Source: a virus
Lineage: Duplodnaviria; Heunggongvirae; Uroviricota; Caudoviricetes
IMG/VR virus record: IMGVR_UViG_2531839178_000021
Span: 1-39,572 of that record
Reading direction: 5' to 3' (one strand)
Length of the DNA stretch: 39,572 nt
A program made the position numbers and the translations under genes. Numbering within the stretch: the first letter of the stretch is position 1; every line of letters starts with the position of its first letter. A model generated the notes under the pieces. It was given only the letters and a program-made list of their open reading frames with translations, did no database searches and was not told the DNA's origin. Below are positions 2,180 to 31,214 of the stretch, piece by piece.

Positions 2180-2239
2180 GGCTGTGTCCCTTAATCATCT
2201 GAGCTATAGTAACTGTCTGTTTACACAACATATTGAACT

Positions 2240-2689
2240 ATGGCTCGCTACGACCTTCCCGATGAGGCATGGACCATCATCAAGCCCCTGTTACCTCCTG
2301 AACCCGCCACACCACGGGCCGGACGCCCATGGGCTGAGCACCGTAAAATCATCAATGGCATGTTCTGGGTGTTATGTTCCGGTGCACCATGGCGCGATTT
2401 ACCCGAACGATATGGGTCATGGAAAACTGTTTATAACCGCTTTAACCGATGGTCAAAGTCAGGCGTGATTAATATTATTTTCAACAGGTTGCTTTCGCTA
2501 CTTGATGCAAACGGCTTTATTGACTGGTCTGCCACCGCGCTGGATGGCAGTAATATCCGGGCGCTGAAATGTGCCGCCGGTGCTCAAAAAAACATCCCGA
2601 TATCGACGGAGATAATGGGCTGGGTCGCTCTCGCGGCGGTTTTGGCACCAAAATCCATCTGGCAACAGACGGAAGTGGCCTCCCGTTAA
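2240..2689 (+). CDS. IS transposase OrfA (DUF4096-like N-terminal part)
   Basis: MARYDLPDEAWTIIKPLLPPEPATPRAGRPWAEHRKIINGMFWVLCSGAPWRDLPERYGSWKTVYNRFNRW; A7 run at 2586-2592 places OrfB in the -1 frame. Confidence 0.8.
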   Translation: MARYDLPDEAWTIIKPLLPPEPATPRAGRPWAEHRKIINGMFWVLCSGAPWRDLPERYGSWKTVYNRFNRWSKSGVINIIFNRLLSLLDANGFIDWSATALDGSNIRALKCAAGAQKNIPISTEIMGWVALAAVLAPKSIWQQTEVASR

Positions 2690-3084
2690 ATATCGTGCTA
2701 AGCCCCGGACAAGCTCATGAAAGCCAGTTCGCGCAACGACTTCTGGACGGGATTGGCGTTCAGCGTCAGAACGGCAGCATGAAACGCCGTGGACATGCGG
2801 TACTGGCTGATAAAGCGTATTCAGGGCGCGCATTGCGCAACGAGCTGAAAAATAACGGTATAAAGGCAGTAATCCCCCGAAAGTCAAATGAGAAAATGGC
2901 ATCGGATGGACGTGCACAGCTTGATCGTGATGCGTACTGCAATCGTAATGTCGTTGAACGGTGCTTTGGGCGGCTGAAAGAATATCGCCGCATCGCCACG
3001 CGTTACGACAAAACGGCGAGAAATTACCTGGCGATGGTGAAACTGGGCTGCATCCGACTCTTTTATCAACGCTTACGTAATTAA
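2569..3084 (+). CDS. IS transposase OrfB (DDE catalytic part), expressed as OrfAB fusion by -1 frameshift
   Basis: ...ADKAYSGRALRNELKNNGIKAVIPRKSNE...NRNVVERCFGRLKEYRRIATRYDKTARNYL, IS4/IS5-superfamily C-terminal signature. Confidence 0.8.
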   Translation: MCRRCSKKHPDIDGDNGLGRSRGGFGTKIHLATDGSGLPLNIVLSPGQAHESQFAQRLLDGIGVQRQNGSMKRRGHAVLADKAYSGRALRNELKNNGIKAVIPRKSNEKMASDGRAQLDRDAYCNRNVVERCFGRLKEYRRIATRYDKTARNYLAMVKLGCIRLFYQRLRN

Positions 3085-3097
3085 GGGACACAGCCTA

Positions 3098-4381: not shown

Positions 4382-6653
4382 AGCCTCCGGGCGTTTTGTC
4401 CCTCCGTCAGCATTTGCTGCAGGCACCGGTAAGGCGTTTACCGGTGCTTATGCATGGAACGCGCCACGCGAGGCTGTCGGGCGCGAAAGACCCTTTACAC
4501 GTGACGAGATGCGTCAGGTGCAAGGTGTTTTATCCACGATTAACCGCCTGCCTTACTTTTTGCGCTCGCTGTTTACTTCACGCTATGACTACATCCGGCG
4601 CAATAAAAGCCCGGTACACGGGTTTTATTTCCTCACATCCACTTTTCAGCGTCGTTTATGGCCGCGCATTGAGCGTGTGAATCAGCGCCATGAAATGAAC
4701 ACCGACGCGTCGTTGCTGTTTCTGGCAGAGCGTGACCATTATGCGCGCCTGCCGGGAATGAATGACAAGGAGCTGAAAAGGTTTGCCGCCCGTATCTCAT
4801 CGCAGCTTTTCATGATGTATGAGGAACTCTGCGATGCCTGGGTGGATGCGCATGGCGAAAAAGAATCGCTGTTTACGGATGAGGCGCAGGCGCATCTGTA
4901 TGGTCATGTTGCTGGCGCTGCACGTGCTTTCAATATTTCCCCGCTTTACTGGAAAAAATACCGTAAAGGATAGATGACCACGAGGCAGGCATATTCTGCC
5001 ATTGCCCGTCTGTTTAACGATGAGTGGTGGACTCATCAGCTTAAAGGCCAGCGTATGCGCTGGCATGAGGCGTTATTGATAGCTGTCGGGGAGGTCAATA
5101 AAGACCGTTCTCCTTATGCCAGTAAACATGCCATTCGTGATGTGCGTGCGCGCCGTCAGGCAAATCTGGAGTTTCTTAAATCGTGTGACCTTGAAAACAG
5201 GGAAACCGGCGAACGCATCGACCTTATCAGTAAGGTGATGGGCAGTATTTCTAATCCTGAAATTCGCCGGATGGAGCTGATGAACACCATTGCCGGTATT
5301 GAGCGTTACGCCGCCGCAGAGGGTGATGTGGAGATGTTTATCACGCTGACCGCGCCGTCAAAGTATCACCCGACACGTCAGGTCGGAAAAGGCGAAAGTA
5401 AAACCGTCCAGCTTAATCACGGCTGGAATGATGAGGCATTTAATCCGAAGGATGCGCAGCGTTATCTCTGCCGTATCTGGAGCCTGATGCGCACGGCATT
5501 CAAGGATAATGATTTACAGGTCTACGGTTTGCGAGTCGTCGAGCCACACCACGACGGAACGCCGCACTGGCATATGATGCTTTTTTGTAATCCACGCCAG
5601 CGTAACCAGATTATCGAAATCATGCGTCGCTACGCGCTCAAAGAGGATGGCGACGAAAGAGGAGCTGCGCGAAACCGTTTTCAGGCAAAACACCTTAACC
5701 GGGGCGGTGCTGCGGGATATATCGCGAAATACATTTCAAAAAACATCGACGGCTATGCACTGGATGGTCAGCTCGATAACGATACCGGCAGGCCGCTGAA
5801 AGACACCGCCGCGGCTGTTACTGCATGGGCGTCAACGTGGCGCATCCCGCAATTTAAAACGGTTGGCCTGCCGACAATGGGGGCTTACCGTGAACTACGC
5901 AAATTGCCTCGCGGCGTCAGTATTGCTGATGAGTTTGACGAACGCGTCGAGGCTGCACGCGCTGCCGCAGACAGTGGTGATTTTGCGTTGTATATCAGCG
6001 CGCAGGGTGGGGCAAATGTTCCGCGCGATTGTCAGACTGTCAGGGTTGCCCGTAGTCCGTCGGATGAAGTTAACGAGTACGAGGAAGAAGTCGAGAGAGT
6101 GGTCGGCATTTACGCGCCGCATCTCGGCGCGCGTCATATTCATATCACCAGAACGACGGACTGGCGCATTGTTCCGAAAGTGCCGGTCGTTGAGCCTTTG
6201 ACTTTAAAAAGCGGCATCGCCGCGCCTCGGAGTCCTGTCAATAACTGTGGAAAGCTCACCGGTGGTGATACTTCGTTACCGGCTCCCACACCTTCTGAAC
6301 ACGCCGCAGCAGTGCTTAATCTGGTTGATGACGGTGTTATCGAATGGAATGACACGGAGGTCGTGAGGGCGCTCAGGGGCGCATTAAAACACGGCCTGAG
6401 AAGACCAAACCGTCAGCAAAGAAACGGAAGCCCGTTAAAACCGCATGAAATAGCGCCATCGGCCAGACTGACCCGGTCGGAAAGAATGCAAATTACCCGT
6501 ATCCGCGTTGACCTTGCTCAGAACGGTATCAGGCCGCAGCGATGGGAGCTTGAGGCGCTGGCGCGTGGTGCGACCGTAAATTACAACGGGAAAAAATTTA
6601 CGTATCCGGTCGCTGATGAGTGGAGTTGGTTTTATTGTTATTCAGAGCAATAA
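4371..6653 (+). pseudogene. A: Replication initiation protein A (rolling-circle nickase), 761 codons, interrupted by an in-frame TAG at 4971-4973
   Basis: ORFs 4329-4973 and 4974-6653 are in the same frame separated only by TAG; combined span from ATG 4371 matches the recalled 761-aa length of P2 gpA; HUH-like region ..PHWHMMLF.. and GYIAKYISK present. Confidence 0.8.
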
Positions 6654-6769
6654 ACATCTGATTTAATTTGTTGCATAATAGTAAAATTGCTGTTTATCTG
6701 CATGTGTTAACTATTGATAATTATGTTGCTAATAATGTGTGCAAATTTATACTGAAAAAGGTGAAAACG

Positions 6770-6922
6770 ATGAATGATATCTTTGTTCTTACAAGGGAAG
6801 AGCTTGAAACACTAGATTATAGTGTTTTTATGCATATACCAGTTACATTTCATGCACATAAAATAAAAAATATCTGGATGGGATTGCTGAATCATCAGAA
6901 AACCCCAAAGAGAAAAAATTAG
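6770..6922 (+). CDS. Cargo locus ORF segment 1 (frame 2), possibly the N-terminus of one larger gene
   Basis: ATG 6770 with AAGGTG 7 nt upstream; low-GC; frame-1 ORF opens at 6862 overlapping this segment across A6 runs (6865-6870, 6913-6918). Confidence 0.45.
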   Translation: MNDIFVLTREELETLDYSVFMHIPVTFHAHKIKNIWMGLLNHQKTPKRKN

Positions 6923-6936
6923 CATCTCTTTTTGGT

Positions 6937-7242
6937 ATGCTATATAGTTTCAATTTGCAAGTTGTTAACAACACTCCATCATTTGAACCCCAAATGATTT
7001 GGGGTAATAAAAGATCAATATTGCCTGAAGATTTTGATGAGCAGGTGAATGACTGTCTTTTATATGTTTCTCAAAAAATAACCAATCCATTTTTGTTATC
7101 AAGAATATATGATGTTGTTTGGTGTAATAATCGGAAAAATAAAGACGTGGCAATTAAAGCAATTGATTCCTATGCTGAAATGCTAAATATAGCAATTGAA
7201 AAGCTAATAATAAAAACGAAAGCATGGATGAAAGTGATTTAA
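6937..7242 (+). CDS. Cargo locus ORF segment 2 (frame 1), hypothetical
   Basis: 101-aa ORF MLYSFNLQVVNNTPSFEPQMIWGNKRS...; overlaps segment 3 by 19 nt across an A5 run (7212-7216). Confidence 0.45.
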   Translation: MLYSFNLQVVNNTPSFEPQMIWGNKRSILPEDFDEQVNDCLLYVSQKITNPFLLSRIYDVVWCNNRKNKDVAIKAIDSYAEMLNIAIEKLIIKTKAWMKVI

Positions 7243-8600
7243 ATTGCTTTATTTTTGCTCGTGATTATATTGCTAGGGCTTTGCACATTAATAAAATGGT
7301 CTACCCTAGAAAATCAGAAGGAAACATGGCGATTAAAAATGCCATTCATTCTCTTTATAGTATTCAAAATGAAAGATTAATCTTTGAAGGTTTCAATAAT
7401 TTGACTTGGTTTATGGTGCGTGATTTTGATGGGTATAATCTGCAGTATGCGGAAAATGCTGAGAAGATGGCTGAGCAGCATAAAGATAAAAAATATTATG
7501 ATGCTGTAAAATCACTTTATATGACAAGTGCAGTTATTTATGAAAAAAATGGTGAGTATGAACGTGCCAAGAGATGTAAACTGGCATCTGCAAATATTAC
7601 TATTAAAGTTGCAACAGATCGACCTGATAATATGGGTAAGATCTCTTGGTTAAGAACAGCTATCTCTGAATTAAGACAGTACGGTGGTGATAGCCAACAG
7701 ATAGAAGATTTAAAGGAACAACTTGCTAATTTGAGAGAAGAAGTAAGGAGTGAATATGTCACTTTAAGCCATTCTATTGATATTAGTGACTTGGTTGCTG
7801 AAAGTGAAAAAAAACTGACGGGGCGTTCTTTGCCCGATATATTCAAAGTTTTAATGCGTGAAACACCGATTGAAAATATTGAAAGCATGAGGGAACAAGT
7901 TTTAAGATTATCAGAAAAAAGTTTATTCTCTAGTTTTGTTGGAACAGAAATTAATGATGAGAGTGGGCGTAAGATATATACAATCCCGCCGTTGGATAAT
8001 AAAAAAGATATGAGTGATGATGTTGTTATTGATCAATATCTAAGAAATTTCGAGATTACTCATAAGATTTTTGTAAACGGTGTCTTTGAACCTGCTCGCT
8101 ATGTACTTTCTCAAGAACATGGCTTGACGTTGTCAACATTCGTTAAATTGGTTACAACTAGTCCAATTGTCAAGCCGGAGTTTAGGGAGATTTTTAATTT
8201 GGGCTTTTACAAATTATGGCAGGGAGATTACATCAGTGCAGCTTATCTTTTAATACCACAAATGGAGGGTATGGTTCGTTATTATTATGAGCTTAGTGGA
8301 AAGGATGCTACTAGATATTTGGATAAGGGATTAGAGGAGTCAACAAGTATTTCTCAGCTTCTAGATAAATGCAGAGATGATTTGGAAAGTATCTTTTCTA
8401 AAAATCTTGTTTTGACTATCGATGTTCTTTTTAACAGAAAGAGTGGGGCAACCTTAAGACATAAATTAGCACATGGTAATTTATATACTAATGCTTGTTA
8501 CGATGAAACAACGACATATGCATGCATCCTGATTTTCTTTCTGTGTGCTTATCCTCTCCTACCATATTTTGATACTGTTTTTGAACAGGGCTCTGTTTGA
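7224..8600 (+). CDS. Cargo protein, 458 aa, unknown function with C-terminal HEPN-like R-x4-H motif; candidate abortive-infection/defence effector
   Basis: low-GC ORF; motif RHKLAHG encoded at 8457-8477; coiled-coil-like EDLKEQLANLREEVRSEY; no Walker A, so not an Old-type ATPase. Confidence 0.6.
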   Translation: MDESDLNCFIFARDYIARALHINKMVYPRKSEGNMAIKNAIHSLYSIQNERLIFEGFNNLTWFMVRDFDGYNLQYAENAEKMAEQHKDKKYYDAVKSLYMTSAVIYEKNGEYERAKRCKLASANITIKVATDRPDNMGKISWLRTAISELRQYGGDSQQIEDLKEQLANLREEVRSEYVTLSHSIDISDLVAESEKKLTGRSLPDIFKVLMRETPIENIESMREQVLRLSEKSLFSSFVGTEINDESGRKIYTIPPLDNKKDMSDDVVIDQYLRNFEITHKIFVNGVFEPARYVLSQEHGLTLSTFVKLVTTSPIVKPEFREIFNLGFYKLWQGDYISAAYLLIPQMEGMVRYYYELSGKDATRYLDKGLEESTSISQLLDKCRDDLESIFSKNLVLTIDVLFNRKSGATLRHKLAHGNLYTNACYDETTTYACILIFFLCAYPLLPYFDTVFEQGSV

Positions 8601-8751
8601 TAACGTATACGTTGAGGCATAAAACCTATGCATACTTAGCTGCATCAATTTGCACGAGGTATTTCAGTATGCATTTTCTGCGTAATAGTAGGGATTGCTT
8701 GGTTTGGTAGTTGTAATTCAACTGCATTCAAACCGACCCATGAAGCGGGCG

Positions 8752-8770
8752 GGCGAGGCGGGGAAAGCAC
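8752..8770. other. cos: cos site (19-nt cohesive end sequence of P2-type phages)
   Basis: GGCGAGGCGGGGAAAGCAC matches the recalled P2 cohesive end; located between the A-side cargo and Q as expected. Confidence 0.7.
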
Positions 8771-8912
8771 TGCGCGCTGGCGGTGGTGCTGATTTTATTT
8801 TTTCAGCGTCTCAGCGCGTCGTGACGGCGCTTAGTCTGCCCGTTGGGGTGTTGGTGTGTCTGCGGGCTGTTTTGTGCTGTGGTGAGCGTGTGAGGGCGTG
8901 ATGACGGGATGT

Positions 8913-8934
8913 AAAAAAGCCGCCCGCAGGCGGC
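8913..8934 (-). terminator. Rho-independent terminator downstream of Q
   Basis: minus strand GCCGCC-tgcg-GGCGGC followed by TTTTTT. Confidence 0.6.
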
Positions 8935-8939
8935 GATGT

Positions 8940-9929
8940 TCAGCCGTTGTCAGTGTCCAGTGAGTAGTTTTTAAAGCGGATGACCTCCTGACCGAGCCAG
9001 CCGTTTATCTCGCGGATCCTGTCCTGTAACGGGATAAGCTCATTGCGGACAAAGACCTTTGCCACTTTCTCAATATCACCCAGCGACCCGACGTTCTCCG
9101 GCTTGCCGCCCATCAACTGAAAGGGGATGCGGTGCGCGTCAAGCAGGTCAGCGGCGCTGGCTTTTTTGATATTAAAAAAATCGTCCTTCGTTGCCACTTC
9201 ACTGAGCGGGATAATTTTAATGCCGTCGGCTTTTCCCTGTGGGGCATAGAGAAACAGGTTTTTAAAGTTGTTGCGGCCTTTCGACTTCACCATGTTTTCG
9301 CGAAGCGTTTCGATATCGTTGCGATCCTGCACGGCATCAGTGACGTACATGATATATCCGGCATGAGCGCCGTTTTCGTAATACTTGCGGCGGAACAGCG
9401 TGGCCGACTCATTCAGCCAGGCAGAATTAAGGGCGCTGAGATATTCCGGCAGACCGTACAGCTCCTGATTAATATCCGGCTCCAGCAGGTGAAACACGGA
9501 TCCGGGCGCGAAGGCTGTCGGCTCGTTAAAGGACGGCACCCACCAGTAAACATCCTCCTCCACGCCACGGCGGGTATATTTTGCCGGTGAGGTTTCCAGT
9601 CTGATGACCTTACCGGTGGTGCTGTAACGCTTTTCCAGAAACGCATTACCGAACACCAGAAAATCCAGCACAAAGCGGCTGAAATCCTGCTGGGACAGCC
9701 ACGGGTGCGGGATAAACGTTGAAGCCAGAATATTACGTTTGACGTAAATCGGTGAGCTGTGATGCACGGCAGCACGCAGGCTTTTTGCCAGACCGGTAAA
9801 GCTGATTGGTGGCTCATACCATCTGCTGTTACTGATGCATTCGACGTAATCCAGAATGTCACGGTGGTCGAGTACCGGCACCGGCTCACCAAAGGTGAAT
9901 ACCTCCATTTTCGGGGCGCTGGCGGTCAT
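8940..9929 (-). CDS. Q: Portal protein Q; N-terminus frame-broken (probable true start ATG at 9973)
   Basis: 329-aa ORF MTASAPKMEVFTFGEPVPVLDHRDILDYVECISNSRWYEPP; upstream ATG at 9973-9971 with GGAG 8 nt upstream, out of frame by one base across a 5-nt homopolymer (plus-strand T-run 9960-9964). Confidence 0.85.
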   Translation of the reverse strand: MTASAPKMEVFTFGEPVPVLDHRDILDYVECISNSRWYEPPISFTGLAKSLRAAVHHSSPIYVKRNILASTFIPHPWLSQQDFSRFVLDFLVFGNAFLEKRYSTTGKVIRLETSPAKYTRRGVEEDVYWWVPSFNEPTAFAPGSVFHLLEPDINQELYGLPEYLSALNSAWLNESATLFRRKYYENGAHAGYIMYVTDAVQDRNDIETLRENMVKSKGRNNFKNLFLYAPQGKADGIKIIPLSEVATKDDFFNIKKASAADLLDAHRIPFQLMGGKPENVGSLGDIEKVAKVFVRNELIPLQDRIREINGWLGQEVIRFKNYSLDTDNG

Positions 9930-10034
9930 TGTTTTTGCCGCAGGTTGCGGTGTTTTCCCTTTTTCTTGCTCATCAGTAAAACTCCAGAATGGTGGATGTC
10001 AGCGGAGTGCTGATACCGGCGGTGAGTGGCTCAT

Positions 10035-11744
10035 TTAACAGGGCGTGCATGGTCGCCCAGGCGAGGTCGGCGTGGCTGGCTTCCTCGCTGCGGCTGGCCT
10101 CATAGGTGGCCTGCGTCCGCTGCTGGTCATGGTCTTGCGGATAGCCATGAACGAGCTGGTGATGTCGGTGGCGCTGACGTCATATTCCAGACAGCCACGG
10201 CGGATAACGTCTTTTGCCTTGAGCACCATTGCGGTTTTCATTTCCGGCGTGTAGCGGATGTCGCGCGCGGCGGGATAGAACGAGCGCACAAGCTGGAACA
10301 CGCCGACACCGAGGCCGGTGGCATCAATACCGATGTATTCGACGTTGTATTTTTCGGTGAGTTTGCGGATGGATTCCGTCTGGGTGGCAAAGTCCATACC
10401 TTTCCACTGGTGACGCTCAAGTATTCTGAATTTGCCACCGGCCACCACCGGCGGTGCCAGTACCACGCATCCGGCGCTGTCGCCACGGTGTGACGGGTCG
10501 TAACCAATCCATACCGGTCGGGAGCCGAACGGATTGGCGGCAAACGGCGCATAGTCTTCCCATTCTTCCAGCGTGTCGACCATGCAGCGTTGCAGCTCCT
10601 CGAACGGGAATACCGATGCCTTGTCGTCAACAAATTCACACATGAACAGGTTTTTAAAATCGTCGGCGCTGTTTTCGCGTTTAAGCTGCTCAATGTCGAA
10701 CAGCGTGCAGCCACCTTTCAGGGCGTCCTCAATGGTGACAATCTGCCGCCACTGGCCGTCCGCACAGAGAAGCCCACCGGCAAGGGCGTTATGACTGATG
10801 TCGATTTCCACGCGTTCGGCGGCGCTGGCGCGTCCCCGGTTAAACAGTTCACCCGACCAGAACGGGTAGGCGTCGTGCGCCAGCGTGGACGGGGTGGAGA
10901 AATAGGTCGAGCGCAGGTGACTCTGTGAGGCCATACCTGATGCCATCTTACGCAGTACCTGAAAATTCGGGATCCAGAACATCTCGTCGACGTACAGGTC
11001 GCCGTTATGGCTCTGCGCGGTGTTGGAGTTGGTGCCGAGAAAAATCAGTTTTGCGCCGTTATTGCCCAGGACAATCGGGTCACCGGTCAGGTCAACGTCA
11101 ACCAGCCGGGCAAAGGCGATGATGTATTCGCGGAACACATACGCCTGTGTTTTACTGGCCGACAGAAAAATCTGGTTATGACCGGTTTTCAGGGCGCGCA
11201 GCAGCGCCTCGCGGGAAAAATAAAACGTCGCGCCAATCTGGCGGGATTTCAGGATATCGCGGATGCGGTGCTCAAGCCCGGCGCGATACCAGTGCAACTG
11301 ATATTCGAAAGACTGCTCAAAGAAAATCTGCTCCAGCTTTTCGATGGCTTCGTCACTGAAAAAATTCTTTTTCGGTTTGCGACGCCCGCCTTTGTTGCGG
11401 TTAGCGACGTTCGGATTAAGGTCTGCCTCGTTGCCGGTCTGACTGTAGCGGTTGACCCGCGCCAGTCGTTCAATCTGGCGTCCCAGCAGGTCAATTTCCT
11501 TGAAGTCACCGCCGGTTTTCTGCGGTTTGATAATGAGCTGGGTCAGCCGCGCTTCCAGACTCATTTCGACACGGCTGATGGGGGCAACGCTGTCCCAGCC
11601 GTCGCGCTGTTTCCAGCTCTGCACCGTCGGGCGTTTCATCTGCAACATGGCGGCAATCTGCGGCACGGAAAACCCCTGCCAGTACAGCAGCGCCGCCTGA
11701 CGACGCGGGTCGTGCAAAAGAGTGGTGTCTGTGGTGATGGTCAT
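10035..11744 (-). CDS. P: Terminase large (ATPase) subunit P; 3' end frame-broken
   Basis: MTITTDTTLLHDPRRQAALLYWQGFSVPQIAAM...; C-terminal ~30 codons are Pro/Arg-rich, while the adjacent frame gives ..YEASRSEEASHADLAWATMHALLNEPLTAGISTPLTSTILEFY ending in TGA overlapping the upstream Q ATG (TGATG). Confidence 0.85.
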   Translation of the reverse strand: MTITTDTTLLHDPRRQAALLYWQGFSVPQIAAMLQMKRPTVQSWKQRDGWDSVAPISRVEMSLEARLTQLIIKPQKTGGDFKEIDLLGRQIERLARVNRYSQTGNEADLNPNVANRNKGGRRKPKKNFFSDEAIEKLEQIFFEQSFEYQLHWYRAGLEHRIRDILKSRQIGATFYFSREALLRALKTGHNQIFLSASKTQAYVFREYIIAFARLVDVDLTGDPIVLGNNGAKLIFLGTNSNTAQSHNGDLYVDEMFWIPNFQVLRKMASGMASQSHLRSTYFSTPSTLAHDAYPFWSGELFNRGRASAAERVEIDISHNALAGGLLCADGQWRQIVTIEDALKGGCTLFDIEQLKRENSADDFKNLFMCEFVDDKASVFPFEELQRCMVDTLEEWEDYAPFAANPFGSRPVWIGYDPSHRGDSAGCVVLAPPVVAGGKFRILERHQWKGMDFATQTESIRKLTEKYNVEYIGIDATGLGVGVFQLVRSFYPAARDIRYTPEMKTAMVLKAKDVIRRGCLEYDVSATDITSSFMAIRKTMTSSGRRPPMRPAAARKPATPTSPGRPCTPC

Positions 11745-11917
11745 GAATACCTCGCCGTGATGAATACACGGCAAGGCTACTGAGTCGCGCCCCGCGATTC
11801 GCTAAGGTGCTGTTGTGTCAGTGATAAGCCATCCGGGACTGATGGCGGAGGATGCGCATCGTCGGGAAACTGATGCCGACATGTGACTCCTCTAATCACT
11901 ATTCAGGACTCCTGACA

Positions 11918-12772
11918 ATGGCAAAAAAAGTCTCAAAATTCTTTCGTATCGGCGTTGAGGGTGACACCTGTGACGGGCGTGTCATCAGTGCGCAGGATAT
12001 TCAGGAAATGGCCGAAACCTTTGACCCGCGTGTCTATGGTTGCCGCATTAACCTGGAACATCTGCGCGGCATCCTGCCTGACGGTATTTTTAAACGTTAT
12101 GGCGATGTGGTCGAACTGAAGGCCGAAAAGATTGATGACGATTCGGCGCTGAAAGGCAAATGGGCGCTGTTTGCGAAAATCACCCCGACCGATGACCTTA
12201 TCGCGATGAACAAGGCCGCGCAGAAGGTCTACACCTCAATGGAAATTCAGCCGAACTTTGCCAACACCGGCAAATGTTATCTGGTGGGGCTGGCCGTCAC
12301 CGATGACCCGGCAAGCCTCGGCACGGAATATCTGGAGTTCTGCCGCACGGCAAAACACAACCCTCTGAACCGCTTCAAATTAAGCCCTGAGAACCTTATT
12401 TCAGTGGCAACGCCCGTTGAGCTGGAATTTGAAGACCTGCCTGAAACCGTGTTCACCGCCCTGACCGAAAAGGTGAAGTCCATTTTTGGCCGCAAACAGG
12501 CCAGCGATGACGCCCGCCTGAATGACGTGCATGAAGCGGTGACCGCTGTTGCTGAACATGTGCAGGAAAAACTGAGCGCCACTGAGCAGCGCCTCGCTGA
12601 GATGGAAACCGCCTTTTCCGCACTTAAGCAGGATGTGACTGACAGGGCGGATGAAACCAGCCAGGCATTCACCCGCCTGAAAAACAGTCTCGACAGCACC
12701 GAAAGTCTGACCCAGCAGCGCCGCAGCAAAGCCACCGGCGGTGGCGGTGACGCCCTGATGACGAACTGCTGA
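11918..12772 (+). CDS. O: Capsid scaffolding protein O
   Basis: MAKKVSKFFRIGVEGDTCDGRVISAQDIQEMAETFDPRVYGCRINLEHLRG; divergent from P. Confidence 0.85.
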   Translation: MAKKVSKFFRIGVEGDTCDGRVISAQDIQEMAETFDPRVYGCRINLEHLRGILPDGIFKRYGDVVELKAEKIDDDSALKGKWALFAKITPTDDLIAMNKAAQKVYTSMEIQPNFANTGKCYLVGLAVTDDPASLGTEYLEFCRTAKHNPLNRFKLSPENLISVATPVELEFEDLPETVFTALTEKVKSIFGRKQASDDARLNDVHEAVTAVAEHVQEKLSATEQRLAEMETAFSALKQDVTDRADETSQAFTRLKNSLDSTESLTQQRRSKATGGGGDALMTNC

Positions 12773-12845
12773 CCGGCGTCAGTCAGTCCGGGAAAACCTT
12801 CACGATTAACCCTTAATTTCAGGAAAAACTATGCGCCAGGAAACC

Positions 12846-14271
12846 TAATGCCGATCAGTTAAGGATCAGTTGACCGATCCAGTGGCTGTGTAAGAATCCG
12901 GAAACGCTCACTTGTTTCCGGATTTTTTTATGCACATTGGACAGGCTCTTGATCTGGTATCCCGTTACGATTCTCTGCGTAACCCACTGACTTCTCTGGG
13001 GGATTACCTCGACCCCGAACTCATCTCTCGTTGCCTTGCCGAATCAGGTACTGTAACGCTACGCAAGCGCCGTCTTCCCCTCGAAATGATGGTCTGGTGT
13101 ATTGTTGGCATGGCGCTTGAGCGTAAAGAACCTCTTCACCAGATTGTGAATCGCCTGGACATCATGCTGCCGGGCAATCGCCCCTTCGTTGCCCCCAGTG
13201 CCGTTATTCAGGCCCGCCAGCGCCTGGGAAGTGAGGCTGTCCGCCGCGTGTTCACGAAAACAGCGCAGCTCTGGCATAACGCCACGCCGCATCCGCACTG
13301 GTGCGGCCTGACCCTGCTGGCCATCGATGGTGTGTTCTGGCGCACACCGGATACACCAGAGAACGATGCAGCCTTCCCCCGCCAGACACATGCCGGGAAC
13401 CCGGCGCTCTACCCGCAGGTCAAAATGGTCTGCCAGATGGAACTGACCAGCCATCTGCTGACGGCTGCAGCCTTCGGCACGATGAAGAACAGCGAAAATG
13501 AGCTTGCTGAGCAACTTATAGAACAAACCGGCGATAACACTCTGACGTTAATGGATAAAGGTTATTACTCACTGGGACTGTTAAATGCCTGGAGCCTGGC
13601 GGGAGAACACCGCCACTGGATGATACCTCTCAGAAAGGGAGCGCAATATGAAGAGCTCAGAAAACTGGGTAAAGGCGATCATCTGGTGAAGCTGAAAACC
13701 AGCCCGCAGGCACGAAAAAAGTGGCCGGGACTGGGAAATGAAGTGACAGCCTGCCTGCTGACCGTGACGCGCAAAGGAAAAGTCTGCCATCTGCTGACGT
13801 CGATGACGGACGCCATGCGCTTCCCCGGAGGAGAAATGGCGGATCTGTACAGTCATCGCTGGGAAATCGAACTGGGATACAGGGAGATAAAACAGACGAT
13901 GCAACTGAGCAGGCTGACGCTGAGAAGTAAAAAGCCGGAGCTTGTGGAGCAAGAGCTGTGGGGTGTCTTACTGGCTTATAATCTGGTGAGATATCAGATG
14001 ATTAAAATGGCGGAACATCTGAAAGGTTACTGGCCGAATCAACTGAGTTTCTCAGAATCATGCGGAATGGTGATGAGAATGCTGATGACATTGCAGGGCG
14101 CTTCACCGGGACGTATACCGGAGCTGATGCGCGATCTTGCAAGTATGGGACAACTTGTGAAATTACCGACGAGAAGGGGAAGGGCCTTCCCGAGAGTGGT
14201 AAAGGAGAGGCCCTGGAAATACCCCACAGCCCCGAAAAAGAGCCAGTCAGTTGCTTAACTGACTGGCATTA
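12846..14271 (+). mobile_element. IS4, 1426 bp, with 13-bp target-site duplication gcgccaggaaacc
   Basis: ends taatgccgatcagttaag ... cttaactgactggcatta; identical 13-mers at 12833-12845 and 14272-14284. Confidence 0.9.
12930..14258 (+). CDS. insG: IS4 transposase (442 aa)
   Basis: [71 protein letters not shown]. Confidence 0.9.
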
Positions 14272-15346
14272 GCGCCAGGAAACCCGCTTTAAATTTAATG
14301 CCTACCTGTCCCGTGTTGCCGAACTGAACGGCATCGACGCCGGTGATGTGTCGAAAAAATTCACCGTTGAACCGTCGGTCACCCAGACCCTGATGAACAC
14401 CATGCAGGAGTCCTCTGACTTTCTGACCCGCATCAACATTGTGCCGGTCAGCGAAATGAAAGGGGAAAAAATTGGCATCGGTGTCACCGGCTCCATCGCC
14501 AGCACCACCGACACCGCCGGTGGGACTGAGCGTCAGCCGAAGGACTTCTCGAAGCTGGCGTCTAACAAGTACGAATGCGACCAGATTAACTTCGATTTTT
14601 ATATCCGCTACAAAACGCTTGACCTGTGGGCGCGTTATCAGGATTTCCAGCTCCGTGTCCGTAACGCCATTATCAAACGCCAGTCCCTTGATTTCATCAT
14701 GGCCGGTTTTAACGGCGTGAAGCGTGCCGAAACTTCTGACCGCAGCAGCAATCCGATGTTGCAGGATGTGGCGGTCGGCTGGTTGCAGAAATACCGCAAT
14801 GAAGCCCCGGCGCGCGTGATGAGCAAGGTCACTGACGAGGAAGGGCGCACCACCTCTGAGGTTATCCGCGTGGGTAAGGGCGGCGATTATGCCAGCCTTG
14901 ATGCACTGGTGATGGATGCGACCAACAACCTGATTGAACCGTGGTATCAGGAAGACCCTGACCTTGTGGTGATTGTGGGACGTCAGCTACTGGCGGACAA
15001 GTATTTCCCCATCGTCAACAAAGAGCAGGACAACAGCGAAATGCTGGCCGCTGATGTCATCATCAGCCAGAAACGCATCGGTAACCTGCCGGCGGTACGC
15101 GTCCCGTACTTCCCGGCGGATGCGATGCTCATCACGAAGCTGGAAAACCTGTCCATCTACTACATGGATGACAGCCATCGCCGCGTGATTGTGGAAAACC
15201 CGAAACTCGACCGCGTGGAGAACTACGAGTCAATGAACATTGATTACGTGGTGGAAGACTATGCCGCCGGTTGTCTGGTGGAGAAAATTAAGGTCGGTGA
15301 TTTCTCCACACCGGCTAAAGCGACCGCAGAGCCGGGAGCGTAACCG

Positions 15347-15640
15347 ATGACGAGTCCCGCACAGCGCCACATGATGCGGGTCTCGGCAGCGATGACCGCG
15401 CAGCGGGAAGCCGCCCCGCTGCGACATGCAACTGTCTATGAGCAGATGCTGGTTAAGCTCGCCGTAGACCAGCGCACACTGAAAGCAATTTATTCAAAAG
15501 AGCTGAAGGCCGCGAAAAAACGCGAACTGCTGCCGTTCTGGTTGCCGTGGGTGAATGGCGTGCTGCCGCACGGCACCGCCGTCGAACTGCCCGACGTTCA
15601 GACCGCGCCCGTGGCTGAAACTGTCAATCTGTGGGAGTAA
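15347..15640 (+). other. 97-codon ORF, probably an in-frame fusion remnant of terminase small subunit M (5' part) and tail protein X (3' end) left by deletion of most of M, all of L and most of X
   Basis: only ~300 bp separate N stop (15343) from holin Y start (15644), where P2 order N-M-L-X-Y needs ~1.4 kb; the M and X assignments of the two halves are from memory. Confidence 0.5.
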
Positions 15641-22860: not shown

Positions 22861-22931
22861 TTCAGAAAGATCAGAACGGTGCGGATATCCCTGATAAAGA
22901 ACGCTTCCTGAGTAACATTAGGCTGTGTCCC

Positions 22932-23444
22932 TTAATTACGTAAGCGTTGATAAAAGAGTCGGATGCAGCCCAGTTTCACCATCGCCAGGTAATTTCTCGC
23001 CGTTTTGTCGTAACGCGTGGCGATGCGGCGATATTCTTTCAGCCGCCCAAAGCACCGTTCAACGACATTACGATTGCAGTACGCATCACGATCAAGCTGT
23101 GCACGTCCATCCGATGCCATTTTCTCATTTGACTTTCGGGGGATTACTGCCTTTATACCGTTATTTTTCAGCTCGTTGCGCAATGCGCGCCCTGAATACG
23201 CTTTATCAGCCAGTACCGCATGTCCACGGCGTTTCATGCTGCCGTTCTGACGCTGAACGCCAATCCCGTCCAGAAGTCGTTGCGCGAACTGGCTTTCATG
23301 AGCTTGTCCGGGGCTTAGCACGATATTTAACGGGAGGCCACTTCCGTCTGTTGCCAGATGGATTTTGGTGCCAAAACCGCCGCGAGAGCGACCCAGCCCA
23401 TTATCTCCGTCGATATCGGGATGTTTTTTGAGCACCGGCGGCAC
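22932..23444 (-). CDS. IS transposase OrfB (copy 2)
   Basis: same protein as 2569-3084 apart from the N-terminal residues at the A-run. Confidence 0.75.
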   Translation of the reverse strand: MPPVLKKHPDIDGDNGLGRSRGGFGTKIHLATDGSGLPLNIVLSPGQAHESQFAQRLLDGIGVQRQNGSMKRRGHAVLADKAYSGRALRNELKNNGIKAVIPRKSNEKMASDGRAQLDRDAYCNRNVVERCFGRLKEYRRIATRYDKTARNYLAMVKLGCIRLFYQRLRN

Positions 23445-23775
23445 ATTTCAGCGCCCGGATATTACTGCCATCCAGCGCGGTGGCAGACCAGTCAATAAAG
23501 CCGTTTGCATCAAGTAGCGAAAGCAACCTGTTGAAAATAATATTAATCACGCCTGACTTTGACCATCGGTTAAAGCGGTTATAAACAGTTTTCCATGACC
23601 CATATCGTTCGGGTAAATCGCGCCATGGTGCACCGGAACATAACACCCAGAACATGCCATTGATGATTTTACGGTGCTCAGCCCATGGGCGTCCGGCCCG
23701 TGGTGTGGCGGGTTCAGGAGGTAACAGGGGCTTGATGATGGTCCATGCCTCATCGGGAAGGTCGTAGCGAGCCAT
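23401..23775 (-). CDS. IS transposase OrfA (copy 2); with A6 the OrfB frame is +1 rather than -1
   Basis: MARYDLPDEAWTIIKPLLPP...AQKTSRYRRR stop. Confidence 0.7.
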   Translation of the reverse strand: MARYDLPDEAWTIIKPLLPPEPATPRAGRPWAEHRKIINGMFWVLCSGAPWRDLPERYGSWKTVYNRFNRWSKSGVINIIFNRLLSLLDANGFIDWSATALDGSNIRALKCAAGAQKTSRYRRR

Positions 23776-24682
23776 AGTTCAATATGTTGTGTAAACAGAC
23801 AGTTACTATAGCTCAGATGATTAAGGGACACAGCCTAGTGTTTTTTATGTTGAAGCCAGAGCTTTCCCTGTACAAATTCTTGCAGAGGAAGGGCTAACGG
23901 TTATTGTTCCGACAGAGGATTATGTCGTCGGTCAAACGACATATAAGTGGGGGGCAACTAATCCCGCTACAGAAAGCACGAACGCACAGGCTATTCTGGA
24001 TTTTAAAAATGGACGTGGTTATTACTGTTCACATCCATTTATTTCCAGCCTTTCAGGAAATGCTGCAACAGCAACGAAGTTAGCGAACGCAAGAAATATT
24101 AATGGTGTCAGATTTGATGGCTCTGCCGATATAAATATTAATACACTGGTATCCAGAAACCGTGTTACTGCATTAGGTGGGAGCGTAAAGGGGACACCAG
24201 GTATTCAGATGTATGAGGCATACAACAATGGCTACCCAACAGCCTATGGTAATGTGCTTCATCTCACTGGCGTAACCGCAGTAGGAGAGGGTGAGTTACT
24301 TATTGGTTGGAGTGGAACCAGCGGTGCTCATGCTCCGGCATATATTCGTTCCCGACGAGATACCACAGATGCTAACTGGTCTGGATGGGCGCAACTATAT
24401 ACAACTGCTCATAAACCCTCAGCGGGAGATGTTGGTGCATACACCAAAACTGAGTCAGATTCACGTTATGTGAGAGACATGCGGCTGGGCGGTGCATCTA
24501 CATATAAACCAGCAAATAATGGTACTACATGGACGCATCAGGCTCCGTCAGGTTGCGTATATACCGGCATTATTGTTCAGGATACCGGCTCAAACTCTGC
24601 CGATAACATTGGTGGCGTATATTACAGACCGGTGCAGAAATACATTAACGGGACATGGTATAACGTGGTGCAGGTATAATTT

Positions 24683-26452: not shown

Positions 26453-26545
26453 AGGCGCAGTGGGTCAGCGAACACCGCAACGACAGAACCGCGTAAGCGG
26501 TAAAATCAGCTTGTTAACTGGCGAGTTTATAGCCGTCCCTCCGGG

Positions 26546-27846
26546 CTGAGGGATCCCCACAAAATTACTGCTAATAAACCAGTACCATATTTCGGTAGGT
26601 TCTGGACAGATGGTTTAGAACTGTGCTCAGTACTGTTCGTCTTAAAATAAGTGGCGAGTGTCGAAGAACATTCTTCGCTAACGTCAGATATGAGATAACC
26701 CGCCGGGATTTAATGCTGTTAGCCTGATATTTCAGGTGTAACCCTTTATTTTCAGCGTGATAACCGAGTAACCACATTACGATAGTGCTCAACGTTGCCA
26801 GCAGACTCAGAACCAGAATTCTTCCTGTTGAACGACTTTTGCTGGCCCGAAGACCAAATCCGAAGCGCCCGTTCTTTTCATCACGAAAGTTTTGCTCTAT
26901 CTGCATTCGCCGACTGTATAACTTGATGATTTCTCGCGCTCTGAAGTCATTTGTACTGCTGAAGATCAACCAGGCTTCTTTTGCTGATTTGCTCTGTTCT
27001 TTGTCTGTTTTGTTTAAACCACTCTGACCTTTCGAACGTTTCTTTTTTCGCCCTTTTGCCGATTTCTTATAGGTGTAAAAATGCCCCCGGATGCTTTTTT
27101 TCCTTTCTTTAACCAGCCTTCCAGCCCCCATATATTCCGGTGTTTTACATTCAGGGCTATCCGACACTTTTAACCATCTTTCAGGCGCGTTATCGAGGCA
27201 ATACTGAACGTTATTTCTGATCCGACCAATAAAATCCCAGCCCAGAGAAGTAATATGGTGAAACCATGCGCTCTGAAATCCAGCATCCGTGACAATAATA
27301 ACCCTGGCATCGGGGGGCAGGGATTGAGCAAGGGAATCAAGGAAATCATGTTGTATCAATGGATTATTTTGTTTTTCAGAAGGAACAACCTTACTCAATA
27401 ACGGAATGGAACGCCCGTCACACAGAAGGCTGGCACGAAGAACATGATGCTCCTGGGAGGGATAGCCACTCCAGTCTACGGCTATTACACATAAAGATAA
27501 CTGCCGTGTCAGCATTGAAGTGATATTCCTGAAAATCATTGGAATATCGCGATGGAGCGCCTCATTACCCATGAGGCGATCAATACGTTTGCTCTTATTC
27601 TTAACTTGTGCATTACCCGGGAAAAAACGTCCGATACTGGTCAGCGTCAGAGATGCTCCGTTGATTAACGCCACTGTGGCATCCATCAGGGCATTTTGTC
27701 GGTACTGATGAAATGGTGCTAAGGCATCCCGGAAGAAATTCTGACATACTTTATGAACAGGCATAGCAGTGATCTCATTGAATTGTTGGCACAAATCAGT
27801 AGATCACATAATGCTATGTCTGTCTCGTTTTCTGGGAATTCCTCAG
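26546..27846 (-). mobile_element. IS10-like (IS4-family) insertion sequence, ~1.3 kb, with 9-bp target-site duplication CCCTCCGGG
   Basis: ends CTGAGGGATCCCC (26546-) and its reverse complement (-27846); identical 9-mers at 26537-26545 and 27847-27855. Confidence 0.8.
26571..27764 (-). CDS. IS10-like transposase (~397 aa)
   Basis: KRIDRLMGN, VDWS, VLRAS, TDAGFQSAWF, SLGW, SKGRKKKRS, SAKEAW, IKLYSRRMQIEQNFRD, FGLRAS: motifs shared with the IS10 transposase. Confidence 0.8.
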   Translation of the reverse strand: MPVHKVCQNFFRDALAPFHQYRQNALMDATVALINGASLTLTSIGRFFPGNAQVKNKSKRIDRLMGNEALHRDIPMIFRNITSMLTRQLSLCVIAVDWSGYPSQEHHVLRASLLCDGRSIPLLSKVVPSEKQNNPLIQHDFLDSLAQSLPPDARVIIVTDAGFQSAWFHHITSLGWDFIGRIRNNVQYCLDNAPERWLKVSDSPECKTPEYMGAGRLVKERKKSIRGHFYTYKKSAKGRKKKRSKGQSGLNKTDKEQSKSAKEAWLIFSSTNDFRAREIIKLYSRRMQIEQNFRDEKNGRFGFGLRASKSRSTGRILVLSLLATLSTIVMWLLGYHAENKGLHLKYQANSIKSRRVISYLTLAKNVLRHSPLILRRTVLSTVLNHLSRTYRNMVLVY

Positions 27847-27931
27847 CCCTCCGGGGCGGCTTTTTTATGACTATAATCGACAGAATCACCTGAACGTCCA
27901 GGTGGGTTTCCCTGACAGGACGTCAAGGAAT

Positions 27932-28116: not shown

Positions 28117-28902
28117 ATGTACGATTATAGTTTTTTACTTACTCCATCTACAGGATTTGTTAAAGGATTATGTGGAGTTTGGTCGAATGATTTCTCTATA
28201 AATGATGATTCTGACTCTGATTTAGGGCAAACAGATATTCATTTACTTTCATCTCCTCATTTGAATATCATATCCGACCCAAATGAATTGGCTTCCAAGT
28301 TAAAAGGTTTGTTGATGCTCATGAACGGCGCACTTAGCGTTCTTTATGGTTTTGAAAGATATCAATCTTTTGGTCCTCTTTCTATTTCTGGAAGTGAAGG
28401 CATTAATTACTCGGAAATATGCGGCTTTAAATCAATGGATGTAACTCAGGTAAACCCCTTTAATTTCCATGACATACAGCAACCACACCCTCGCGCTGAT
28501 AATTTTTCACGATTAATTAATTTATCATCTAAACATGAATCCTTACGTGTTGTTTTAGGTATGTGTGCCTTAGGTTATGATTGGGTTAATCTTTATCGTT
28601 TGTGGGAAACAATTAGAGAATATGTATATGATAAATATGTGAAAGGTATACTAAATTTCCCCGACGCTTATAAAGGCAAGAAATATCAGAGAGATAAAGT
28701 AATTAGCATGGCTTTTAATATTGATGAAAAGGAAATCAGCAGATTCACGGGCACTGCTAATAGCTTTGAACTGTTAGGGTATCTTGCGAGACATGGAAAG
28801 GGAAGTTCCGGAGGGATATTAAAAAATCCGATGTCAAGAGTTGACGCAAGCATTTTCGTACACAAAGCAACTTACAAATATTGTAAGTTATTTTTGATGT
28901 AA
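28117..28902 (+). CDS. Hypothetical cargo protein (261 aa), unknown function
   Basis: low-GC ORF with AAGAGGGA RBS; no recognisable motif. Confidence 0.6.
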   Translation: MYDYSFLLTPSTGFVKGLCGVWSNDFSINDDSDSDLGQTDIHLLSSPHLNIISDPNELASKLKGLLMLMNGALSVLYGFERYQSFGPLSISGSEGINYSEICGFKSMDVTQVNPFNFHDIQQPHPRADNFSRLINLSSKHESLRVVLGMCALGYDWVNLYRLWETIREYVYDKYVKGILNFPDAYKGKKYQRDKVISMAFNIDEKEISRFTGTANSFELLGYLARHGKGSSGGILKNPMSRVDASIFVHKATYKYCKLFLM

Positions 28903-29063: not shown

Positions 29064-29816
29064 TCATTTAGGAATAATAGAATGCAATTCGTGACTCACC
29101 TGGATTTCATAGTGTTTCAATAGTTCTCCGATGTTAATTCCTACTACCTTACGAACTGCGCCGAGGGAGAAGTTAAGCTCCTCAATGCCCGGCCGATCTG
29201 GCGTTGAATTCATATAGTGTCGGCACGCACGGACAATTGACTCGACGATCAACGATAGCGGAGACTCAGGTGCAATCTCGGAGCGAATCGCCGTAAGAGA
29301 GAGTCGGAGCTCCTTCAAAGAATCCGAGACTCGTGCTGGATCCTCTTGAGCATATGGCAGATAAAGAGAACTCTTGTCTTCCAATAAATGGATCAACCGC
29401 AGAGCAATTTTCTCGTCTGGGCGATGCGATAGAAATTGAAACATTAGCCTCTTTCCTCCCTCCAAGCACTCCTTCATTAGTGATTCGTGGTCACGTTTCC
29501 ATTTTCGCAAATACTCGGCGGGGTAGCCCATACCGCCATTCTTATCAACTAAATCAGCACAAGCTCCGCACAACCATATAGCATTTTTTATGCTCTTCCG
29601 CTCTGTTTCTGACTGAGACATGTCATAGCGCGGTCCGCCAGGGCTCGCCGCGCAGATATGCGCCGCCTCACCCGTCTTGATAGAAAGATTTTCCGCCAAT
29701 TGATCCGGGCCGATTGTTACCCTATGACAAGAGGGATTGCTACAAATATATGTAGCGCGCTCTGCTACCTTACCTACAACGCTTGGAGGAAAGTTGTGCC
29801 TATTTGTCTTGGTCAT
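29064..29816 (-). CDS. Hypothetical protein with N-terminal Cys/His cluster resembling an HNH/His-Me-finger nuclease motif
   Basis: YICSNPSCH ... AAHICAASPGG ... NAIWLCGACADLVD; mid-GC; the IS630 copy lies ~70 bp upstream of its start. Confidence 0.45.
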   Translation of the reverse strand: MTKTNRHNFPPSVVGKVAERATYICSNPSCHRVTIGPDQLAENLSIKTGEAAHICAASPGGPRYDMSQSETERKSIKNAIWLCGACADLVDKNGGMGYPAEYLRKWKRDHESLMKECLEGGKRLMFQFLSHRPDEKIALRLIHLLEDKSSLYLPYAQEDPARVSDSLKELRLSLTAIRSEIAPESPLSLIVESIVRACRHYMNSTPDRPGIEELNFSLGAVRKVVGINIGELLKHYEIQVSHELHSIIPK

Positions 29817-29887
29817 AAAAGTTATGCTTCTTTGTTTTTTTCATCTATGTGGGGAGAATAAAATCATACTTTTTATATCTGATCCTA

Positions 29888-31041
29888 AATAGCTGCGCTT
29901 AATACCGCTACACTTTTGCCAGTCCATGTTTGCCTCCGGGGAATGGGCTGACGGTTTCCATAAAATGGCGAACTTTTTTCAACAGTTGCCACATTGAGCG
30001 GCACTGATGATTACGCGTTATTGTGTCGTGAAGTGCCTGCCATAGCCGTTCAACATGATTCACCCATGGCGAGTAAACCGGCTGATAAATGACCCTGAAC
30101 TTCGGGTTCTCCTTCAGCCAGCTCTGTGTTTCCCGGCTTTTGTGGATAATGTAGTTGTCCACGATCAGCGTGATGGTTTTCGCCCGACGCTATGTCGCTT
30201 TAAGCCGCTTCAGCAGGCTGATGAACAGCGCCGAACTTTTTGCTGTTGCCGCCCACATAGCTGACTTTACCTGTCCCGCTGTGCAGCGCTCCGGCCAGAT
30301 AATATTTTTCATTCTGTCCCGGCGTGACCACCCGTTTTTGCTGTCCGCGCAGTTGCCAGTCCGCACCGATTTTGGGATGAAGATGGATATCCACTTCATC
30401 TTCATAAAAGACCGGATGCTCTGCGCTGCATTCGTCCAGTGCTTTATGGATTGCTGCCATCTTTTCATCTTTATGCGGGTCACGGATACGCAGAGTTGGC
30501 GCAGCCCTTCGCCACACAATCCCCGCAGACGGCAACCAGCGGCGAACGGTTCCGGCATTTAACTGGCAACCGGTTATCTCATTGATTTTTATTGCCAGCA
30601 GTTCTGTACTCCAGCGTGAACGCTGGTAGCCAAAGTCGCCGGGAGAATGTTTTACCAGCTCACGTAACAGTGTGCAGATATGCTCAAACGGCCAGCGACG
30701 GGCACGCCCGGCAGGTAATGATTTCAGTCCCTCAACACCCGACTGCGTGAACCAGTTAATCCAGCGTCCAACAGAGGAACGGGCGCAGCAGAGCGTTCTG
30801 GCAACGTCGCTGACACGGTCGCCCCGGTGCAGCATCAGCATGGCAGTCAGTCTGCGGGCATAATTTTTATCGTGTGTTTTATGGATGGCTTTCTGCATCA
30901 GGCGTCGTTCGTCACGGGAAATTGGTGCTATGATCGGCATTGCTCAGTCCGGTTGGTGATTTGTTTTGATTTGGCGATTGATCAGATCGCACAATCCGGG
31001 CTAAGTTCCCTCAAAATGATCTACTATTCCGCGCAGCTATT
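29888..31041 (-). mobile_element. IS630-family insertion sequence (1154 bp), TA duplication within a CTAG target
   Basis: terminal repeats aatagctgcgc (29888-) and gcgcagctatt (-31041); TA at 29886-29887 and 31042-31043 flanked by C and G. Confidence 0.85.
29908..30940 (-). pseudogene. IS630 transposase, split into two ORFs (30200-30940 and 29908-30162) by a frame break
   Basis: N-part MPIIAPISRDERRLMQKAIHKTHDKNYARRL.. and C-part ..NYIIHKSRETQSWLKENPKFRVIYQPVYSPWVNHVERLW together approximate the recalled single 343-aa IS630 transposase. Confidence 0.75.
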
Positions 31042-31214
31042 TAGGTCTGACCAGCAACCTATTGATCAAAAAACCAAGATATTAGCTAAAAAAATCAGCA
31101 TACTTGAGACCAAGCTCAATGTCCGCTCCTCGCTCAAAGCAGACTGTCAGATTTGATAGCATTTGGGCTATGTAAATTGTCAGGCGGAAAATGAGTGAGT
31201 ACAAATCAGGACAG

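Follow-up and report, generated by a model that had tools for sequence, protein, structure and literature searches.

An IS4 insertion at the translation start of the major capsid gene N in a decayed P2-like prophage of Shigella boydii 965-58

IS4 is among the five insertion sequences that have expanded in all Shigella species, where they drive pseudogene formation (Hawkey et al. 2020, PMC7373316). Elements of the IS4 subgroup share the end signature -AATR--------WTW (PMC2266710, Table 1), produce target duplications of 10-13 bp and, for some members, show an arm specificity that has been called "spectacular" (PMC2266710). The annotated copy in Escherichia coli K-12 MG1655 (insG, NC_000913.3 4502090-4503515) is 1426 bp long, carries 18-bp imperfect terminal repeats and is flanked by a target duplication of 12 bp. 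In phage P2, gene N is continuous, starts at P2 position 4080 and, according to the annotation of NC_001895, is transcribed from the Ogr-dependent promoter pO within the O-to-S operon. In the procapsids of P2 and P4, the alpha0 helix of gpN (residues 1-14) contacts the neighbouring subunit (PMC7552001).

The window analysed here is a stretch of 39,572 nucleotides that forms IMG/VR record IMGVR_UViG_2531839178_000021. Contig AKNA01000058.1 (L003), which comes from a draft assembly, matches the window at 100% identity across 12,996 bp, and an exact-sequence look-up of a 331-aa product encoded in the window found it on 40 contigs, as EIQ29163.1, [quoted passage not shown]. On its right, the prophage is bordered by ogr and then yegQ, which places it at the yegQ/ogrK attachment site; many E. 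coli strains carry an ogrK-containing P2-like prophage, or a remnant of one, at the yegQ site. The DNA of the Q-P-O-N region is 97.6-97.7% identical to that of P2, and the Q-P / O-N-M gene order of P2 is kept. In a BLAST comparison with P2 (NC_001895), window positions 8752-12845 corresponded to P2 1-4094 and positions 14272-15565 to P2 4082-5375, at about 97.6% identity, so that P2 4082-4094 was found on both sides of an intervening element, whose features are as follows.

12846-14271, plus strand: IS4, 1426 bp, with the transposase gene oriented like N (alignment with K-12 IS4)
12846-12863, no strand: left terminal inverted repeat, TAATGCCGATCAGTTAAG (repeat finder; K-12 IS4 comparison; fit to the IS4-subgroup signature)
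14254-14271, no strand: right terminal inverted repeat, reverse complement TAATGCCAGTCAGTTAAG (repeat finder; K-12 IS4 comparison)
12912-14258, plus strand: intact IS4 transposase ORF (NF033592, PF13006, PF01609)
12833-12845, no strand: left copy of the target-site duplication, GCGCCAGGAAACC (repeat finder family D15; P2 alignment)
14272-14284, no strand: right copy of the target-site duplication, GCGCCAGGAAACC (repeat finder family D15; P2 alignment)

The element aligned with K-12 IS4 without gaps and at equal length, with 7 mismatches over 1426 bp (99.51% identity), and the coordinates given to it in the initial annotation proved exact. Its left end from 12846 reads TAATGCCGATCAGTTAAGG and its right end at 14271 reads ...CCTTAACTGACTGGCATTA. 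The terminal inverted repeats TAATGCCGATCAGTTAAG and TAATGCCAGTCAGTTAAG are identical at 16 of 18 positions and fit the IS4-subgroup end signature. A boundary shifted by one base was also considered, since the inverted repeat grows to 19 nt when the C and G next to it are included; it was rejected because the alignment with the annotated K-12 element sets the ends at 12846 and 14271. The transposase is a single uninterrupted ORF of 448 aa if read from TTG 12912, or of 442 aa with ATG 12930, the start used in the K-12 annotation, and differs from K-12 InsG at 5 amino acids. It scored 298.8 bits against NCBIfam NF033592 (IS4 family transposase; cutoff 115) and contains the Pfam domains PF13006 (Nterm_IS4) and PF01609 (DDE_Tnp_1). 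Thus, the element belongs to IS4 by every criterion that could be tested, and with its ORF and both ends intact it is plausibly able to transpose. The window copy shares its length and its 18-bp imperfect terminal repeats with the K-12 copy and has a duplication of similar size (13 bp against 12 bp), whereas the two differ in insertion site and at the seven mismatched positions. The best-matching annotated IS4 copies, 99.9% identical over the full length, came from E. coli strains other than K-12, and some of them were on large plasmids. Loci annotated as IS4-like element IS4 family transposase matched the 1426 bases in 2,687 of 5,426 complete E. coli genomes.

The initial annotation had placed this element after codon 5 of the major capsid gene N with a 13-bp target duplication, and had proposed an alignment with IS4 and with intact N as a check; the alignments left both the boundaries and the duplication unchanged. 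The 13-nt direct repeat GCGCCAGGAAACC is exact, its right copy is followed by CGC TTT AAA, and its length lies inside the published 10-13-bp range. Because an exact repeat of 13 bp stands precisely at both ends of a known insertion sequence, it is not a matter of chance. The interrupted gene is represented in the window by the following parts.

12831-12848, plus strand: 5' stub of N, ATG CGC CAG GAA ACC (MRQET) followed by TAA (translation; P2 4080-4094)
14270-14272, plus strand: in-frame TAG before the remnant of N (translation)
14273-15343, plus strand: codons 2-357 of N and the stop codon (translation; TIGR01551)
14348-15343, plus strand: 331-aa ORF from GTG (Val27 of gpN), deposited as EIQ29163.1 (ORF list; exact-sequence look-up)

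The stop codon of the stub, TAA, is formed by the first three bases of IS4, so that the stub reads MRQET*. The TAG at the other end is composed of the last two bases of IS4 and a G, the third base of the former start codon of N; to the right of IS4, the N frame translates as a stop followed by RQETRFKFNAYL..., which bears out the earlier statement that the remainder of the ORF is blocked at the end of the element. When IS4 and one copy of the repeat were removed in silico, a gene N of 357 codons was restored that is 99.4% identical to P2 gpN (NP_046760.1), with two substitutions only, I130V and E308V. In addition, the 331-aa ORF scored 306.9 bits against TIGR01551 (major capsid protein, P2 family; cutoff 219.65), and the remnant N' (14273-15340) lies between the scaffold/protease gene O (11918-12769) and the remnant M' of terminase gene M (15347-15586). 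By every criterion that could be tested, the target of the insertion is P2 gpN, the P2-family major capsid protein (TIGR01551 / PF05125). The gene that is continuous in P2 is thus interrupted after codon 5 in the prophage; as annotated, N is a null allele, otherwise undamaged. One detail of the initial annotation had to be corrected: the 331-aa product was said to begin at the first in-frame ATG, but its ORF starts at GTG 14348 (Val27), and the first in-frame ATG of the remnant, at 14393 (Met42), gives 316 aa.

These observations are very probably explained by a standard IS4 transposition into the start of N in a P2-like prophage at the yegQ/ogrK site of S. boydii 965-58, as one step of the IS-driven decay of that prophage. 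IS4 transposed through a 13-bp staggered cut into the translation start of N, with the duplication beginning at the G of the start codon; the insertion left a 5' stub of MRQET and a stop, and turned the ATG of the downstream copy into TAG. The site fits the target preference of IS4, for an A-rich left arm, a CAGG or CTGG core and a T-rich right arm. We compared the N site with seven other IS4 sites, namely six E. coli loci and the K-12 copy, a sample that was read without a statistical test. Five of the seven are flanked by exact duplications of 11-13 bp and the other two by imperfect ones. In most of them an A-rich arm lies a few bases off on the left and a T-rich one three bases off on the right, and in this small sample the cores often include CAGG or CTGG. 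The N insertion site, AAAAActat-GCGCCAGGAAACC-cgcTTTAAA, matches the arm pattern of most of them, and we infer that the site was hit because it meets this preference. Mayaux et al. reportedly gave AAA-N20-TTT as the IS4 target consensus in 1984; a word search of the literature for the classical consensus gave nothing useful.

One of these IS4 copies lies in the tam gene of E. coli 1008S13 (L008), directly after the ATG (aaaaaaATGt/CTGACTGGAACCC). The flanks of this copy resemble the N site (window 12826-14296), since the megablast match extends past IS4 by 7 bp on the left and by 25 bp on the right. Two of the eight IS4 sites read, those in P2 gene N and in tam, lie within a few bases of an ATG. 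It may be that the target preference of IS4 resembles A-rich leader and start-codon regions, leading to landings at translation starts and hence to clean null alleles; we hold this to be quite unlikely. If such landings were general, IS4 would act as a start-codon-biased mutagen in Shigella genome reduction.

The insertion in N is accompanied by further lesions, of which the other insertion sequences and the largest deletion are listed here.

2180-3095, plus strand: IS5-family element, 916 bp, with a 2-bp duplication (TA), in the P2 replication gene B (profile search; P2 protein mapping)
22918-23837, minus strand: second IS5-family copy, 99.9% identical to the first, in the tail-fibre gene H (profile search; P2 protein mapping)
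26531-27861, minus strand: IS4-family element (NF033591), its inverted repeats imperfect and 34 nt long, in the cargo region equivalent to fun(Z) (profile search)
29884-31045, minus strand: IS630-family element with a frameshifted transposase (246 + 84 aa), in the region replacing fun(Z) (profile search)
15347-15640, plus strand: M'-X' fusion ORF, 97 aa (P2 comparison; P2 protein mapping)

The window thus holds five IS copies within about 38 kb, three of which interrupt phage genes (N, B and H). The IS5-family element carries two overlapping ORFs, and the NF033591 element is one that, from the look of its transposase, we take to be IS10-like. M, L and X, which are intact in P2, are largely deleted in the prophage: a deletion of 1256 bp (P2 5376-6631), whose junction at 15560-15565 falls on the microhomology GTGCTG, has taken away the 3' two thirds of M together with the entire head-completion gene L and the 5' half of the tail gene X, and the fusion ORF joins the first ~80 codons of M to the last ~32 codons of X. 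The replication gene A carries a nonsense change, CAG to TAG, at codon 201 (window 4971-4973), and there are single-base frameshifts in P, S and FII together with a lesion at the start of Q (sites ~10110, ~18027, ~32737 and ~9959, respectively). The frameshift in P is a shared one. The indels in S and at the start of Q are not present in CP026824.1, a complete chromosome with a related prophage; they may be strain-specific changes or errors of draft assembly or sequencing, and the count of about ten lesions is approximate because some of the single-base frameshifts are not in CP026824.1. A functional P2-like prophage would have A, B, Q, P, O, N, M, L, X, the tail genes and H intact, and that set was not found here. 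As judged from these genes, the prophage is dead, able neither to make particles nor to act as a helper for P4. Survival of the tail genes as a tailocin was considered as well and rejected, X being half deleted, H interrupted and FII frameshifted.

The cargo regions of P2 (old/tin, orf30 and fun(Z)) hold other genes in the prophage. At the old/tin position (window 6624-8707) lies a low-GC (33%) gene with matches to PDC-S39, a candidate defence family of PADLOC, and to Pfam DUF7380. Whereas its E. coli relatives are 610 aa long, the gene is broken into two ORFs here (6937-7242 and 7224-8600) and is therefore probably a pseudogene. At the fun(Z) position, the N-terminal 120 residues of a 250-aa ORF (29064-29816, minus strand) match the PADLOC candidate PDC-M68A and endonuclease-type effector models, and an adjoining low-GC ORF of 261 aa (28117-28902) gave no family match; the segment 28117-29816 may represent a small defence cargo.

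To follow transcription through the insertion, two features just inside the left end of IS4 have to be considered.

12870-12897, plus strand: sequence resembling a sigma-70 promoter ahead of the transposase gene, TTGACC-16-AAGAAT preceded by TG (consensus match only)
12892-12932, plus strand: hairpin followed by a run of seven Ts, just inside the IS4 left end (folding -27.6 kcal/mol, z = -6.7; repeat finder I4)

The arms of the hairpin, AAGAATCCGGAAAC and GTTTCCGGATT, begin forty-seven bases into IS4. For transcripts that enter from the late promoter pO, this structure is likely to be an intrinsic terminator or a block to translation, as its fold and T run suggest. Transcripts of the transposase gene that began at the promoter-like sequence would start within the hairpin, and therefore only transcripts reading in from outside would form it; it looks like the usual device by which insertion sequences shield the transposase gene from outside transcription. 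A pattern-based terminator scan of the plus strand did not list the hairpin, which we suspect is because the A-rich 5' arm is able to pair with its T run, and this makes a terminator function uncertain. Given the strong seven-T hairpin, the insertion is expected to be polar: late transcripts from pO would meet the hairpin on entering IS4, with an effect on N', M', Y, K, lysA, lysB, R and S, and N' could be reached only by weak transcription continuing out of the transposase gene.

Polarity of this kind also enters the view that the insertion was positively selected, as the first inactivating hit, which killed head production and dampened the lysis genes Y and K. The position of IS4, heading the N-to-S part of the late operon, would maximise such an effect; apart from the insertion, N has no other damage, with 2 substitutions relative to P2, and the insertion is common to diverged strains. 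However, among the approximately ten lesions the data mark none as the earliest, and the M-L-X deletion is present in every relative that has the IS4 junction. Moreover, neutral accumulation of insertion sequences is the documented default in Shigella (PMC7373316), and the match to the target preference accounts for the position without selection. Selection for the insertion is thus unlikely, and we retain ordinary transposition within a decaying prophage as the explanation.

A different question is whether N is still expressed in spite of IS4. The initial annotation had suggested that capsid protein might come from an internal start or an IS-derived promoter, and one may suppose more precisely that N' is transcribed, either by read-through of the transposase transcript or from a hybrid promoter formed at the right junction, and that translation from GTG 14348 or ATG 14393 yields a usable capsid protein. 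The transposase ORF stops 13 bp short of the end of IS4 and the remainder of N is undamaged. In addition, the hairpin at the right end (14242-14267) has its T run on the minus strand only, and since it lacks one on the plus strand, weak read-through from the transposase gene into N' is possible. However, a promoter scan of the right end of IS4 gave no outward or hybrid candidate that reached its threshold, and neither start has a plausibly spaced Shine-Dalgarno sequence: read by eye, the one Shine-Dalgarno-like stretch before GTG 14348, GGTGAT, runs directly into the start codon, and none is seen among the bases upstream of ATG 14393. A product from Val27 would also be without the alpha0 helix (residues 1-14), the contact to the neighbouring subunit in procapsids. 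Finally, an infectious head would be impossible with M, L and X deleted and P frameshifted, and expression of N is irrelevant to particle production because of the many other lesions (B, H, A, M-L-X and the frameshifts). A usable capsid protein from this locus is therefore very improbable, and the earlier suggestion was not borne out; the reading of N as a null allele produced by IS4 stands.

The same insertion was found in related strains. The complete chromosome CP026824.1 (L002) contains both IS4 junctions as well as the junction of the M-L-X deletion. Four contigs from short reads (L004-L007) begin inside the right end of IS4 and run into N', and they carry the right junction and the M-L-X deletion junction. 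The latter junction is the same in L002-L007 and is common to all related contigs examined. Between CP026824.1 and the window there are 27 differing positions, four of them inside IS4, and their even spread points to inheritance from a common ancestor; the insertion is thus older than the split of these strains and was passed down within a clade. In CP026824.1, the IS4 copy that interrupts N has a 1-bp deletion at the equivalent of window position 12998, which splits the transposase into calls of 41 and 390 aa; this copy may be immobile, unlike the intact copy in the window. Outside this group, the N::IS4 junction was found in none of 5,426 complete E. coli genomes, and the same genomes yielded no M-L-X deletion junction, one record giving an unrelated two-piece match. 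The left IS4 junction had no match in the GTDB species representatives, and a search of IMG/VR returned one contig with this junction, 99.8% identical to the window.

Short-read assemblies usually break at a repeated insertion sequence. Although AKNA01000058.1 is a contig of a draft assembly and the short-read contigs L004-L007 break at the IS4 end, the idea that the junction is an assembly artefact, with a repeated element misplaced in a draft genome, is almost certainly wrong, in view of both junctions in the independent complete chromosome CP026824.1, the left junction in the IMG/VR contig, the exact 13-bp duplication of IS4-typical size that flanks the element, and the start of every short-read contig inside the right end of IS4 with continuation into N'.

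The insertion of IS4 in N is thus real, was accurately read, and is an ordinary instance of well-known IS-driven decay; literature searches, including searches by assembly and record accession, turned up no description of this insertion. The picture of IS expansion in Shigella predicts exactly such a case, with IS4 inside a prophage gene of S. boydii, and the window, with its five IS copies, agrees with that picture (PMC7373316), which was drawn from a study without S. boydii populations. The finding adds one further example of IS4 target specificity and of prophage decay in Shigella, and has little importance beyond annotation. Its value for annotation is that EIQ29163.1, the 331-aa "major capsid protein", is the remnant of a pseudogene disrupted by IS4. 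In addition, the N::IS4 and M-L-X deletion junctions, taken as a pair, could mark this lineage of S. boydii.
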